Virus record (IMG/VR): IMGVR_UViG_3300035492_000103
Span: 10,019 to 74,018 of that record
Reading direction: 5' to 3' (one strand)
Source: a virus
DNA length: 64,000 nucleotides
Positions 8,553 to 39,180 of this stretch are shown here, one piece after another. The position numbers and the translations under genes are program-made. The notes under the pieces are model-generated. The model did no database searches and had not been told where the DNA came from. It saw only the letters and a list, made by a program, of their open reading frames with translations. How positions within the stretch are numbered: the stretch's first letter is position 1; each line of letters opens with the position of its first letter.

Positions 8553-10397
8553 TTAATTTAATAACCAGTCTTTGCGAGCATCTGCTTTGGATTTATCGAA
8601 TGCTATATCTAATGCTTCAAAGTCTGCTTTATCCGTAGCAGTTATTTTAACAGAATATTTTGAATCTACAAGGAACCTTTTAAAATCTTTGGTTGCATAA
8701 CTACCAAGACCTTTAAAATATTTGTGACTATGTTTCCCAGCAGTTTCACTCCATACAGTATATTCAGATGTTCCGAAAAATTCTACAGTATTTTTACCTT
8801 GTTGGGCTATAATTAACGGCGGGTTCAATTTACAAATAACACCCATTGTGATTAATTCTGGCCAAAACTCATTAATCATATTAATGATAAGACCGAATAT
8901 GTGTTGACCATCAGGGTCTGCATCTGTAGCAACTAGAATTTTACCGAACCGAAGTTCATCTACAGAATTAACTTTTGTACCAACTTTCAATCCCATAATT
9001 GCCATGATGTTTTGGAATTCTTCATTGTTGGCCAATTTCTTCACTTCAATATCACGGACGTTAATGAACTTGCCTCTCAGAGGAAATACGCCCATTGTCT
9101 GAGGATCACGTGCAGATAGAATTGTTGTGGCAGCACTATCACCCTCTGTTAAAATCAGTGAACACAATGACCTATCTTTACTTGTAGCATCATCAAATTT
9201 GGTGATTCGTTTCAGAAAGTTATTATTCTGAGTTTGTTTGTTCAATTTGCGCAGTTCTGCCAATTCATCTTTTCGTTTTTCTGCGGCTACCCAGTCCAAT
9301 ACTTTTTCTACAACTGGTGAATCAAATAACCTTTTGATGAATTTATCAGAAGGTGTGTATGATGTACCGAAATCTCTGACTTCGGAACACATAAATTCTT
9401 TGGTTTGTGAATTGAAGTTAGGAGCATTAATCCTACATTTCATAATCACCATCATCTGTTGTCGAATCACGTTTGGTTTTACTTCTATTTTATGCTTCTT
9501 TTTAATTAATTCACGGAGTTTGTAAATAATCTGATTTGAAACATAATCAACGTGTGTACCACCATTATAGGTATCAATGCCGTTAACAAAAGACACATGT
9601 CTAAACTGACCATCTTCAACAGCAGTTAATGCTACTGAGTAATCGTCTGTTTCTTCAATAACATATTCAGATGTAAATAGTTCTACATAGTCCTTAAATG
9701 ACTTAATATTGATCCGTTTTCCATATAGGTGAACATTGATACCTGGGTTACAACCAGCTACATCATAAACACGACGTTCAATCTTTGCAATATTATCAGA
9801 GTCCAATTCACAATCTAATCGCTTATAATCTGGTGTAAAAGTGATTGTTGTACCATTATCTTTGGAAGGTTGTATAACAGATTTACCTCGGTCCTGTGTG
9901 TTATTCCTAAATGTTTGAACAAATCTGTTTTTACCATCGCAAGTATCAACTTTAAACTCTGTTGAATAAATACTGGTCAATTTTGCACCAAGGCCATTCA
10001 GACCAGCTGTAATCCGTTCTTCGTCATTAAAATTTGAACCTGTACGGAGTTCACCAAAAATCATTTCTGGAATATATGTACCATATTCAGGATGTTTTGC
10101 TACAGGAATACCACCATCGTCACGGATCTGAATTTCACCGGTCATAGGGAAAATATCAACCCAGATGTTTTTAACTGAACCCTTTCTGATGTGTTCATCT
10201 ACAGAATTTGAAATAATTTCATCAAATAGTTTTAATAGACCTGGATTATATGTGACTTCAGATTCTGTCATGTTATCATCAGACAAAAGCCAAGTTTTTG
10301 TATTTGTATTTGATACGTTACCGATATAGATACCAGGTCTTGCGAGGATATGTTCAACCTCTGATAATTTTTTAAATTTACTTAATTCTGTAGTCAT
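8553..10397 (-). CDS. 39: DNA topoisomerase II large subunit (fused gp39+gp60)
   Basis: GHKL ATPase (EIISNSVDE, GLNGLGAK) plus TOPRIM (LTEGDSA, PLRGK, DADPDG, KGLGS). Confidence 0.95.
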   Translation of the reverse strand: MTTELSKFKKLSEVEHILARPGIYIGNVSNTNTKTWLLSDDNMTESEVTYNPGLLKLFDEIISNSVDEHIRKGSVKNIWVDIFPMTGEIQIRDDGGIPVAKHPEYGTYIPEMIFGELRTGSNFNDEERITAGLNGLGAKLTSIYSTEFKVDTCDGKNRFVQTFRNNTQDRGKSVIQPSKDNGTTITFTPDYKRLDCELDSDNIAKIERRVYDVAGCNPGINVHLYGKRINIKSFKDYVELFTSEYVIEETDDYSVALTAVEDGQFRHVSFVNGIDTYNGGTHVDYVSNQIIYKLRELIKKKHKIEVKPNVIRQQMMVIMKCRINAPNFNSQTKEFMCSEVRDFGTSYTPSDKFIKRLFDSPVVEKVLDWVAAEKRKDELAELRKLNKQTQNNNFLKRITKFDDATSKDRSLCSLILTEGDSAATTILSARDPQTMGVFPLRGKFINVRDIEVKKLANNEEFQNIMAIMGLKVGTKVNSVDELRFGKILVATDADPDGQHIFGLIINMINEFWPELITMGVICKLNPPLIIAQQGKNTVEFFGTSEYTVWSETAGKHSHKYFKGLGSYATKDFKRFLVDSKYSVKITATDKADFEALDIAFDKSKADARKDWLLN

Positions 10398-30859: not shown

Positions 30860-31272
30860 ATTTGAGATGCAACTTTACGGCCAACAATTAAATTATTCTG
30901 AATGGACCAATCTGCAATATATGACATAAACTGACCAATCTTAGCATCTGGATTACTGATTTTATAACCAATAATCATATGTTCAAGACGCATATTGTCC
31001 AATTCTGCAGGCATATATGAATTGATTTTATTCAACTCTGTAGTTAATTGTGCAACAGAACGTCCATTCTGTTGATAGATGTCAATAGTTTGTTCAATAG
31101 TACCTTTGTACTTTTTCAACATTCTAATGACACCTTGGTCGTCTGTAGTTTTATTTTGTTGTAAATCACCCAATAGTGTTGTTAGTAGATTTACCGTTAC
31201 TGTATCTTTTGTTTTACGAGCTTCAATTTGCTCAGTTTTAATTCTTTCGTAAATGCTCATATTATTATCCAA
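30841..31272 (-). CDS. YqeY/GatB-like protein
   Basis: IK.EQIEARK.KD, ELNKINSYMP.EL. Confidence 0.65.
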   Translation of the reverse strand: MDNNMSIYERIKTEQIEARKTKDTVTVNLLTTLLGDLQQNKTTDDQGVIRMLKKYKGTIEQTIDIYQQNGRSVAQLTTELNKINSYMPAELDNMRLEHMIIGYKISNPDAKIGQFMSYIADWSIQNNLIVGRKVASQIWNTVE

Positions 31273-32218
31273 TTATATAATGACGTTTCTGAATACCATA
31301 CACAAGTTGATAGATTTTGTCTTTATCGACAGAATCTGGTAGTGATGATTTTAAAGCTGCTTTGTTAACATTGTCAATCAATTCTTCCAAAGCAGGTTGA
31401 ATCCAAGTTTTGAAATCACGTTCACCTGTTTTAATCGGTAAAATAATATCCCGAACTTCCTTTGAAAGAGGTAATGTCATTTTATGATTTTCAAACATAT
31501 CCAATAATTGATAACCAGCTCTGAATGCATGACTCAATGCTTTAAAATCCACACCTTCATTGATTTCGGCTTGTAATGCTCTATGACCATAATCATTTAA
31601 AGCAGAACTGATACGGTTGATTAACTCTTCAATGGTTATTGTCCATTGATGTAATTTACCCAATACTTCATAACCTGTTTCGTATTTGAAAACATATTCA
31701 TTTTCTGGTAATTTGTCTTTGATTAAATGAATTTTATGTTTAGGTGACATATGGGATAGGTTGCGCAGCGACTCCAACACTTCTCGGAGAGCGTGGATTC
31801 TTGTACCTTTAATACCATACTTCGCAGCCTGTTTCCTTACATACCCGATATATGCACGCATATCCTTACAATAGAATAGTGAACGGTTATCATATAAATC
31901 TATGAATGCTTCTGCACCAGGATATAAAGTTGTATATTGCTCTGTAAGTGGAGCGTGAATCATATCCATAGCAACCATTTCACCCTTAATCAACATTTTT
32001 ACAAATGTCATTAGTGAAAAATGCATATGATCTGTATCTGCACTTGTATTTTTACTACGATTATCACCAGTACCGGTTGAATATGTATCCTTAGCGGTTC
32101 CCATCAATACTTCTTCTAATGTAGGAATAAAAATTGATTTGTAATCCATATCAGAATTAGGTGTGTTGAGACCGTAAAGATGGCTACCGTGAAGAATTGT
32201 AACAATTGGTGGATTCAT
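31265..32218 (-). CDS. Pol-beta-superfamily nucleotidyltransferase (RlaP/NrdC.11-like)
   Basis: HGSHLYGLNTPNSDMDYK, GYVRKQAAKYG, KALSHAFR. Confidence 0.8.
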   Translation of the reverse strand: MNPPIVTILHGSHLYGLNTPNSDMDYKSIFIPTLEEVLMGTAKDTYSTGTGDNRSKNTSADTDHMHFSLMTFVKMLIKGEMVAMDMIHAPLTEQYTTLYPGAEAFIDLYDNRSLFYCKDMRAYIGYVRKQAAKYGIKGTRIHALREVLESLRNLSHMSPKHKIHLIKDKLPENEYVFKYETGYEVLGKLHQWTITIEELINRISSALNDYGHRALQAEINEGVDFKALSHAFRAGYQLLDMFENHKMTLPLSKEVRDIILPIKTGERDFKTWIQPALEELIDNVNKAALKSSLPDSVDKDKIYQLVYGIQKRHYIIG

Positions 32219-34795: not shown

Positions 34796-34871
34796 TGGCA
34801 GGGTGACTAGGATTCGAACCCAGATCACACGGCTTTGGAGGCCGGCATAATAACCATTATACTATCACCCT
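34796..34871 (-). tRNA. tRNA-Trp(CCA)
   Basis: Cloverleaf, AGGGTGA/TCACCCT, encoded CCA. Confidence 0.92.
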
Positions 34872-34872
34872 A

Positions 34873-34954
34873 TGGCGCACCAGGAGGGACTCGAACCCCC
34901 ATACTCCAATTACTCGATTAACGACGGTTTAGAAGACCGTTGAGATACTGGCGC
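34873..34954 (-). tRNA. Atypical tRNA-Arg(TCT)-like RNA lacking a canonical D arm
   Basis: Acceptor, anticodon and T arms plus CCA; only 7 nt between acceptor and anticodon stems; 23-nt variable region. Confidence 0.7.
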
Positions 34955-35277: not shown

Positions 35278-35383
35278 TTTGTACTTAGCGTGGAATCGAA
35301 CCACTTACTCATCCAGAGCCCAAACAGGAATCGAACCTGTATAACGATAGCTAACCGTGCACCCAATGCTTACCAAGTACAAA
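35278..35383 (-). ncRNA. tRNA-like RNA with two T-arms
   Basis: Terminal stem GUACUUGG/CUAAGUAC; ACAGG-UUCGAUU-CCUGU and GUGG-UUCGAUU-CCAC. Confidence 0.6.
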
Positions 35384-36181: not shown

Positions 36182-36258
36182 TGGCAGGAATGACGAGATT
36201 CGAACTCGCGGCCTCCACCGTGACAGGGTGGCGTTCTAACCAACTGAACTACATTCCT
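36182..36258 (-). tRNA. tRNA-Asp(GTC)
   Basis: Cloverleaf plus CCA. Confidence 0.93.
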
Positions 36259-36265
36259 ATAAATC

Positions 36266-37005
36266 TGGAGGGCAGTCTGAGACTTGAACTCAGTGGCTTA
36301 AAAGACACCGAGTTCTTTCAAATCGCTCTCAAACAAGACTTTTAAAGTTCTATAAGAAGGAAACTGTGACCATTTGGCGGCATCTTTCTCTGTCTTATAT
36401 CCCTTTATTTCTATATACTCATCAGAATCTACTAAGTAAAAGTCTGGAGTATATCTTCTAATCTTACCTTCAAACTCGTATGGAAAAGAATCCTTACATC
36501 TTTGCCATTTAATTTGATTTTTATCTAACCATTTAGCGTATTCAAGTTCCCATTTACCATGAAGGTCTACTCCATTATAGTTGTAATGCAGGTTTTTAGT
36601 AAGTGAAACATGCCATTCTCCACTTTCAACCCTTTTGGCAATAGTCGCTTTACGTTTCGCCTTTGTTTCCTCAGATTCATTAGCATTACGTTTTTTGGTG
36701 CCTTCCGATAGTTTCTTTCTGGTTTCATCAGACAGTACATAACTATCATTAGACCATTGATTCACAACACCATTTTCTTTTCTAAGTTTTGCTATCTCTT
36801 TTTGCTTCTCAATATCTTGAAATGGTGTAAATTGTCTTTCAGGATTGAGCTTACAAAATCTTTGATGAGCACTTAAAGAATTGTTATTTTTACATTCTTT
36901 CATACAAAACTTACATTTCATAACAGTAGTCACTTTTGGTAAATACTATTATTTATAAAATATAAGTTTTTAGTCTGCTGCTCTAACCAACTGAGCTAAC
37001 TACCC
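36266..37005 (-). pseudogene. tRNA (probably Lys) split by endonuclease insertion: 5' half 36972-37005, 3' half 36266-36297
   Basis: GGGTAGT pairs ACTGCCC-T-CCA; D arm in one half, T arm in the other. Confidence 0.8.
36298..36921 (-). mobile_element. Putative homing endonuclease (Zn finger + NUMOD3-like + PD-(D/E)XK)
   Basis: CKFC...H.RFC, ETRKKLSE repeats, YTPDFYL..EYIEIKG; own TATAAATA at 36950-57. Confidence 0.8.
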
Positions 37006-37779: not shown

Positions 37780-39180
37780 TTAAATTGTATATCTGTCAAC
37801 ATCTACAACTTTTAACATCATTTCATATGGGTTATATTCTGTTCCACATACTACAGATTTCAACAGAGATGGACTAAAACCAGAAACCAATAGGGCACCA
37901 GTATCATCTTTTTGTACTGGGAAATTATCGTTCCGAGCATTTAGGTTCCAGAATACAACTTGCGGTAAAGTATAACCTTTCTTGGTAAATTCCTTTTTTG
38001 CCCATTCAAAGTTGGTTGAGTTCTTGTTAACATTATAGCCACTAATTCGATTAAATTCCATATCAGAGAAAATCAACAACTGTTCCGGTAAATCTTCCTG
38101 GCTTAATTTGTGTTTCACTGCTGCATCCAAGATTAGTTGGAATGTTGCTTGTAAATTTGTAGAACCACCCCAAGGAGCTGCATAAATTCCTCTGATACGG
38201 TTAGCAAATGTACCTTTAATTTGCATCATCTTAGGACTTTCATCGAAAGTTATAAACTGATCCTTAAAAACACCTTCATTTCGTTCTGCTACATAAAGAC
38301 CTAATGATACCGCAACATCCATACATGAAACTGAACTACCGCCAGCAGAACAATTCATAGATGATGAAACATCAATGACAGGTAAAATCCTAGTCTGTTT
38401 CCCTTCCATGTAATTTGGAAGTGCTTTCCATTGTGCTTCTGCAACAGATTCATTATTAACCATACCATATCTTAATGATTTTACAATATCATAAGGATAA
38501 ACAGCGCCAGCATTGATTTTTGTTTCACCTTTTGATAATGCTTGTTTGTATGCTTCATAACGAACTGCGTCATTTCGATGAAAAGCTGTCATATATCGAG
38601 CAGATGCAACTGATGGTAATTTTGCATAGTCAATTTCTGACCAATTACCAGCAGACATTTTCTGCTCTACAGTATTTGACAAATTCACCAACATTTTACG
38701 TAATGATTTAGGATCCAATCCCATTTTCTTGCGCAGTAAATTAAACATAGGACCTTTGCGAGGTGTCCACTTTGCTGCTAATGCGTTACCTTCCATTAAA
38801 GCATCTGCAGTAATAGAAACAGCTAAATCTTGATACGGTGTATTGATGAACACATGTAAATCATCCCAACGACCAACTTCAACAGTCTTTGCCATAACAC
38901 GGAAAGCATTTTCTTTGTTGATAACCGTCATAACGTTATCACGGAATAACTGTCGTTCACCTGAACCACCACGGATATCACGTGCATGAAATAAAATCTG
39001 ACTTGTCAGTTTTGGATTTTCACCGTATGCTTTCATAACATTATGAGAAATATTCTTTCCACGAGAAGCACCAATTTTGAAAAACAGATCCAGACAAGCA
39101 TCAAGTGTTGAACCATGAGTAACAGCACCATTTTCTGTCAATGACATAGATGTTTGAGTTGCATTGAATAATTTTGACAT
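37780..39180 (-). CDS. TROVE/Ro60-like protein (DUF2828-type) with C-terminal vWA
   Basis: LTENGA, LDLFF, RDIRGGSGER, GRWDDL, AAKWTPR, EAQW, MIDAS DVSSSM, SDMEF, VFWNL, SGFS. Confidence 0.85.
   Translation of the reverse strand: MSKLFNATQTSMSLTENGAVTHGSTLDACLDLFFKIGASRGKNISHNVMKAYGENPKLTSQILFHARDIRGGSGERQLFRDNVMTVINKENAFRVMAKTVEVGRWDDLHVFINTPYQDLAVSITADALMEGNALAAKWTPRKGPMFNLLRKKMGLDPKSLRKMLVNLSNTVEQKMSAGNWSEIDYAKLPSVASARYMTAFHRNDAVRYEAYKQALSKGETKINAGAVYPYDIVKSLRYGMVNNESVAEAQWKALPNYMEGKQTRILPVIDVSSSMNCSAGGSSVSCMDVAVSLGLYVAERNEGVFKDQFITFDESPKMMQIKGTFANRIRGIYAAPWGGSTNLQATFQLILDAAVKHKLSQEDLPEQLLIFSDMEFNRISGYNVNKNSTNFEWAKKEFTKKGYTLPQVVFWNLNARNDNFPVQKDDTGALLVSGFSPSLLKSVVCGTEYNPYEMMLKVVDVDRYTI

Follow-up and report, generated by a model that had tools for sequence, protein, structure and literature searches.

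A tRNA-Arg(UCU)-like gene with a relocated D loop

The 64,000-nucleotide (nt) stretch of DNA analysed here, referred to as the window, covers positions 10,019 to 74,018 of IMG/VR record IMGVR_UViG_3300035492_000103, a 106-kb virus record that is ~67% complete. A cluster of transfer RNA (tRNA) genes lies on its minus strand, and the penultimate gene of this cluster (34873-34954) is an 82-nt tRNA-Arg(UCU)-like gene that runs from G1 to an encoded CCA and whose D stem and D loop are connected in another order than in a cloverleaf, a layout that we call rewired. The 5' strand of its 7-base-pair (bp) acceptor stem (positions 1-7; 34948-34954, with G3 at 34952) is followed by U8, A9 and a pyrimidine that replaces position 22 (34945-34947), and then by CUC-A (34941-34944), which corresponds in canonical numbering to the 3' strand of the D stem (23-25) and position 26. 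These seven nt, UAUCUCA, are all that separates the acceptor stem from the 5-bp anticodon stem, and a D hairpin is absent there. The anticodon arm (34924-34940) carries the loop CUUCUAA with the anticodon UCU at 34933-34931. From there to the T arm runs a 23-nt segment, CGUUAAUC-GAG-UAAUUGGA-GUAU, made up of a linker (34916-34923) whose G-U at 34922-34921 is the 5' strand of a short variable stem; the triplet GAG (34913-34915), which can pair with CUC and is the equivalent of the D-stem 5' strand (10-12) moved 3' of the anticodon arm; the relocated D loop UAAUUGGA (13-20; 34905-34912) with A14, A15, G18 G19 (34907-34906) and A20 (34905); and GUAU (34901-34904), which holds the 3' strand of the variable stem, a near-invariant A and U48, the Levitt partner of A15. 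The gene ends with a 5-bp T arm with the loop UUCGAGU (34884-34900) and the acceptor 3' strand (34873-34883), which includes U70 at 34879 (G3.U70 being 34952/34879), the discriminator G73 at 34876 and CCA at 34875-34873.

Most features of a cloverleaf tRNA are thus found in the gene: a 7-bp acceptor stem with discriminator and CCA, a 5-bp T stem with a UUCRANY loop, and a 5-bp anticodon stem with a 7-nt loop, U33 and a purine at position 37. What it lacks is the D hairpin between the acceptor and anticodon stems. The likeness to a canonical tRNA-Arg(UCU) (RF00005), such as that of Shigella phage Sf14 (L358:4812-4888), extends to the 7-bp acceptor and 5-bp T stems, an anticodon arm of identical sequence, the D-loop GGA with A20, G73 and CCA; in the rewired gene, however, the strands of the D stem flank the anticodon arm, the D loop lies 3' of that arm, and the variable stem crosses the D stem. 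ARAGORN called 13 tRNAs in the window, the rewired gene not among them, and Rfam model RF00005 gave the gene 34.2 bits in an alignment that deletes the D arm and inserts 20 nt 3' of the anticodon arm. With model R1, the gene is the sole strong match on the contig (102.6 bits).

Covariation of the relocated stem

We aligned 54 homologues with MAFFT (alignment A1) and found compensatory changes in the acceptor, anticodon and T stems, the acceptor stem being paired in 99.2% of cases with both-sided changes at all 7 pairs. The cross-arm stem formed by CUC and GAG (columns 11-13 with 40-42) was paired in 162/162 cells and showed 31 double-sided changes compared with 7.0 +/- 1.9 in shuffled alignments, while controls in which the stem was slid were 12-43% paired. 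Column pair 12:41 ranked sixth of all pairs by corrected mutual information, among the pairs of the acceptor and anticodon stems. With a search pattern that left all but the outer C-G pair free, 78 of the 79 sequences recovered were paired at all three positions, with at least nine different triplet pairs. A 3-bp match such as CUC/GAG is at chance level in one sequence alone but above chance across the homologues. The rewired topology proposed in an earlier note on this DNA, drawn from the letters only, is supported by this covariation, and every sequence feature it listed (UAUCUCA, the UCU loop, GAG, the D-loop copy, G3.U70, G73 and CCA) is present on the minus strand.

The bases predicted to form the Levitt pair 15:48 also covary: they are A-U in 137/139 distinct members of the family (described below) and G-C in the remaining two (2/139). 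GG (18, 19) and the T-loop bases, between which the 18:55 and 19:56 contacts of an L-shaped tRNA would form, are conserved. The U8/A9/pyrimidine segment is invariant in A1, partly because the search patterns fixed it; across all members the pyrimidine is U in 129/139 and C in 10/139. The 2-bp variable helix (columns 33-34 with 51-52) shows one-sided variation only in the main type and is longer, at 3-5 bp, in the relatives L179, L141 and L042. Its crossing of the D stem makes the core, in formal terms, a pseudoknot. The role of A21 could be filled by A9 or by the near-invariant A before U48.

These data bear on two rival explanations. A low Rfam score and the lack of an ARAGORN call are what a decayed tRNA pseudogene or an assembly artefact might give, but the covariation refutes this: the homologues show compensatory changes in all stems rather than the random decay against which the earlier note wanted them checked, and 139 distinct intact homologues exist. 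The gene also lies on one unbroken contig in run X1, and the identical 82 nt recur in a second study (run X3) with flanks diverged on both sides. One X3 contig consists of exactly these 82 nt with zero differences and has 30-nt overlaps with its neighbouring contigs, as at a branch point of an assembly graph, which speaks for conservation to the exact gene ends and is not evidence of expression. We regard decay or artefact as having a negligible chance of being correct. The other explanation is a tRNA that has neither a D arm nor a relocated D stem but forms a long variable hairpin (e.g. UUAAU/AUUGG). Such a hairpin can form in the single sequence, and mitochondria do have D-arm-less tRNAs (PMC7609411); against this, the cross-arm stem and 15:48 covary, the G18 G19 A20 motif is kept, and one subtype has a relocated stem of 5-6 bp, which together make this alternative highly improbable.

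A family of rewired tRNAs in phages

Pattern scans of viral and metagenome contigs yielded 139 distinct phage or metagenome sequences with the rewired layout, of which 121 have the anticodon UCU, 2 UCG, 2 CCU, 1 ACG, 12 UAU and 1 GAU. About half of the matches to loose patterns were chance hits or other elements, and these were removed by a stem-pairing filter. CCA is encoded in 89/139 members, and ARAGORN calls only 4 of the 121 distinct UCU members. The core (positions 8-54 of the 82 nt) is much better conserved in sequence than the stems, even across unrelated phages, and the gene of the window is 95% identical to rV5-like phages over positions 7-73. BLAST found near-identical cores in rV5-like (UPEC06), jumbo Asteriusvirus (121Q), Sugarlandvirus, Felixounavirus and Justusliebigvirus phages, as well as in one Streptomyces phage and one Limnohabitans phage; most of the matched genes are unannotated, and some are labelled tRNA-OTHER or tRNA-Leu. 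Two further BLAST matches, in Flavobacterium phage FL-1 (L008) and Enterococcus phage EfsSzw-1 (L009), were judged not to be members.

No match was found in the E. coli genomes and plasmids searched. A scan of GTDB gave three real rewired tRNAs among the matches listed, all on short contigs of metagenome-assembled genomes and possibly of phage origin, and we therefore have no evidence for a cellular copy. The literature that we consulted, including reviews of non-canonical tRNAs but with poor coverage of subscription and older journals, holds no description of the family.

The survey also brought variants to light. A second subtype of rewired tRNA-Arg(UCU) occurs at loci L017, L045, L074, L084, L090, L099, L104, L116, L121 and L299; its relocated stem has 5-6 bp, the loop ahead of GGA is very short, and the variable stem that crosses the core has 3-4 bp. 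Two rewired Arg isoacceptors (UCG and UCU, CCU and UCU, or ACG and UCU) are found together in single phages (L209:3788-4170; L047:11434-11596; L153:12999-13429; L179). Two odd tRNA-like elements (L134:3085-3170 and L161:7830-7920), each with a CCCGAAA loop and with GUAAGAUGGAGU ahead of the T arm, were left unparsed by the detector.

Synthetase identity elements

The determinants of bacterial arginyl-tRNA synthetase (ArgRS) are A20, C35, U/G36 and A/G73 (PMC9976931), and the 82-nt gene has the full set, with A20 following G18 G19 in the relocated loop. In metagenome sequences found with a pattern that ended before the D loop, GGA was present in 57/57 and A or G at position 73 in 55/57. Counts of A20 were taken from patterns that leave GGA free, as those that fix it are biased. 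When the search pattern left both the anticodon and position 20 free, the newly found loci had A at position 20 in 9/10 Arg members and in 0/12 Ile-type members (11 U, 1 G), and U20 is listed among the Ile determinants (PMC9976931). The base at position 20 thus tracks the anticodon, which is the best sign that synthetases read the relocated loop as a D loop. The rewired tRNAs with Ile anticodons (UAU, GAU and one CAU) all have A73 and mostly U at position 20; they occur at loci L182, L187, L188, L191, L194, L195, L200, L207, L221, L222, L227 and L231, and at L141:4054-4133. Bacteria seldom have an unmodified UAU anticodon.

Since the acceptor stem carries G3.U70, the earlier note had raised charging by alanyl-tRNA synthetase (AlaRS), which would make the RNA a missense tRNA that reads AGA as alanine. 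This pair can give other tRNAs alanine acceptance (PMC9976931), and natural allo-tRNAs with G3.U70 exist (PMC5389517). As a property of the family, however, mischarging finds no support. Pair 3:70 covaries freely across the 126 Arg members (G-C 59, C-G 32, A-U 16, G.U 10, U-A 9); G3.U70 in 10/126 compares with G.U at 1:72 in 12 and at 2:71 in 8, and G73 accompanies it in 5/10, which is no enrichment. The gene of the window has C2-G71, C4-G69, G73 and A20, and the Ala determinants A73, G2-C71, G4-C69 and G20 are absent from it (PMC9976931). As G3.U70 is not a feature of the family, alanine mischarging is unlikely, and we give the missense reading very little credence. Some alanylation may occur in vitro, and is hardest to exclude for the Felix O1-type copies (L004:1177-1258, L097:7635-7716, L123, L393 and L430). 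In these, G3.U70 is joined by G2-C71, G4-C69 and A73, a near-full Ala acceptor set, but with C1-G72; they are the best candidates for a test of mischarging.

Replacement of a canonical tRNA and genomic context

Shigella phage Sf14 (Mooglevirus) encodes its canonical tRNA-Arg(UCU) between tRNA-Ile and tRNA-Ser. In Salmonella phage VSe102, which belongs to the sister genus Felixounavirus, a rewired gene occupies exactly that slot, and its flanks are near-identical to those of Sf14. The authors of the Felix O1 genome paper had remarked that AGA codons are frequent and that the tRNA expected for them is missing (PMC3185647). Within the DNA fetched, a canonical UCU tRNA stood beside a rewired UCU gene in 1/43 tRNA clusters, compared with canonical UCU in 7/24 clusters of a control (Fisher p 0.002), although this is a convenience sample and the test is weak.

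The contig of the window is T4-like: its UvsX shares 53-57% identity with the UvsX of T4-like phages, and a baseplate wedge gene is present along with genes for DNA polymerase B and a DnaB-like helicase. The sequencing runs that match its DNA best are tar-pit metagenomes, a possible source of the contig, and no RNA run was listed among them. Apart from the rewired gene, no Arg tRNA was found in the contig, and the Arg codon used most in its long open reading frames (ORFs) is AGA, at 43%. The last gene of the tRNA cluster, 1 nt downstream of the rewired gene, is a canonical tRNA-Trp(CCA) called by ARAGORN (34796-34871, minus strand). Two matches to TTGACA-type promoters, together with a TATAAATA box, lie just upstream of the cluster; in the promoter scans, TTGACA-type and TATAAATA sites were overall no commoner than expected by chance.

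Several other elements on the minus strand of the window drew our attention. A tRNA-like element with two T-loop motifs (35278-35383) lies between tRNA-Ser and tRNA-Gly, and tRNA-Asp(GUC) (36182-36258) begins with A1-U72 where G1-C72 is usual. At 36266-37005, a 211-aa endonuclease-like ORF is flanked on one side by the 5' half of a tRNA and on the other by a 3' half that comprises T arm, acceptor strand and CCA. Upstream of the tRNA cluster, a gene for a DUF2828/DUF7788 "RNA-binding protein" (37780-39180) adjoins YrlA-like RNAs (39643-39874), and in Sf14 a DUF2828 gene is likewise found directly before the tRNA cluster. About 2.6 kb downstream of the cluster is a gene for an RlaP-like nucleotidyltransferase (31265-32218), for which a role in RNA repair is possible.

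Discussion

Taking the conserved architecture, the identity elements and the syntenic replacement together, we think it likely that the 82-nt gene encodes a working phage tRNA-Arg(UCU) that attains the usual L shape from differently connected strands and reads AGA, and probably AGG as well. The gene would be transcribed along with the tRNA cluster and trimmed by host RNases. Its strands would then follow each other in the order acceptor, U8-A9, D-stem 3' strand, anticodon arm, linker, D-stem 5' strand, D loop, position 48 and T arm; with this order, the D stem encloses the anticodon arm and closes no hairpin of its own. The rebuilt D stem would stack on the anticodon stem, and the relocated D loop would reach the T loop through G18/G19, position 48 through A15, and ArgRS through A20, while the variable stem (2 bp, or 3-5 bp in relatives) would cross the D stem to give a pseudoknotted core. 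Host ArgRS would charge the RNA, allowing AGA and AGG to be decoded. The benefit is likely to be a supply of Arg for AGA-rich phage genes. An artificial tRNA that lacks the D arm is accepted by E. coli EF-Tu and ribosomes (PMC11551756), which makes use of the rewired tRNA by the ribosome plausible.

Some of our results weigh against this reading. The relocated stem of the main type is just 3 bp and is predicted by neither RNAfold nor RNAalifold (single-sequence z -1.0), which leaves covariation as the only line of evidence for it. Moreover, related phages share changes, and the cell counts overstate the number of independent events; even so, the relocated stem has so many distinct pair types that one single event is ruled out. 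The Ile members have A73 but mostly G4-C69, where the E. coli determinant is C4-G69. At L065:1522-1692, a rewired and a canonical tRNA-Arg(UCU) adjoin each other, the sole case in the 43 clusters, and a further Arg tRNA could lie in the part of the genome that is missing from our ~67% complete contig.

The pairing at L065 could also be taken to favour a non-translating mimic, an RNA of the proposed fold, perhaps bound by ArgRS or even charged, that would act as a decoy or inhibitor of a tRNA-targeting host defence or toxin and not as an adaptor. Host nucleases that cut tRNA-Arg exist (PMC12916289), the contig holds other tRNA-like RNAs, including the YrlA-like matches at 39643-39874, and the far stronger conservation of the core (positions 8-54) than of the stems suggests a specific protein partner. 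In contrast, the adaptor features are all kept (the 7/5 acceptor branch, 7-nt loop, U33, purine 37, and CCA in 89/139), the canonical gene has been replaced in place, and the identity elements change together with the anticodon. With Arg identity elements retained and the slot of a canonical tRNA-Arg taken, the pure decoy that the earlier note had entertained is less likely than a working tRNA, and we consider a mimic unlikely.

More tentatively, we propose that some Arg and Ile tRNAs of phages form a natural class of their own, pseudoknotted and without a cloverleaf, which the synthetases and ribosomes of bacteria use and whose core may have been kept because it hides the tRNA body from defence nucleases or toxins while the anticodon loop stays unchanged; as a whole, this proposal is possible but rather doubtful. 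The published model of nuclease evasion involves changes in the anticodon loop (PMC10264068). The CUUCUAA loop, however, is that of the Shigella host (PMC12482277) and is found in 46/54 members, and any nuclease resistance would therefore have to act via the tRNA body.

Several known systems resemble the rewired tRNAs in part. Circularly permuted tRNA genes and YrlA-type tRNA-like Y RNAs also have tRNA modules in an unusual linear order. The cyclic order of the arms is kept in circularly permuted genes and the mature product is a cloverleaf, whereas the order of the arms is itself altered in the rewired tRNA. YrlA (RF02553), unlike the rewired tRNA, has neither an anticodon arm nor CCA. The D-arm-less mitochondrial tRNA-Ser (PMC7609411) and the engineered E. 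coli mini HisT (PMC11551756) likewise have no hairpin between the acceptor and anticodon stems, but they have lost the D stem and loop, which the rewired tRNA keeps and reconnects; it is also natural, phage-encoded and for bacterial hosts. As its D stem and loop are kept, relocated and covarying, the mitochondrial type of D-arm-less tRNA was ruled out as its class. Allo-tRNAs with an 8/4 or 9/3 branch, described by Mukai et al. (PMC5389517), are non-standard too, some of them from phages and some with G3.U70, but they remain cloverleaves with an altered acceptor/T split. The rewired tRNA has a rewired D region and only sporadic G3.U70, and its 7/5 split rules out the allo-tRNA class.

This layout is at odds with the published statement that bacterial tRNAs are all cloverleaves, to which the family would be a natural exception in bacterial cells. 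If our reading is true, the tRNA core can be rebuilt through different strand connections, and the "missing" AGA tRNA of Felix O1 is explained. Inventories of phage tRNAs would need correction, as the 4/121 called by ARAGORN illustrate. The family is carried by phage groups that are tractable in the laboratory, namely Felix O1-like, rV5-like, Sugarland and 121Q, and it may offer both a scaffold for tRNA engineering and a new route by which phages escape tRNA-targeting defences.
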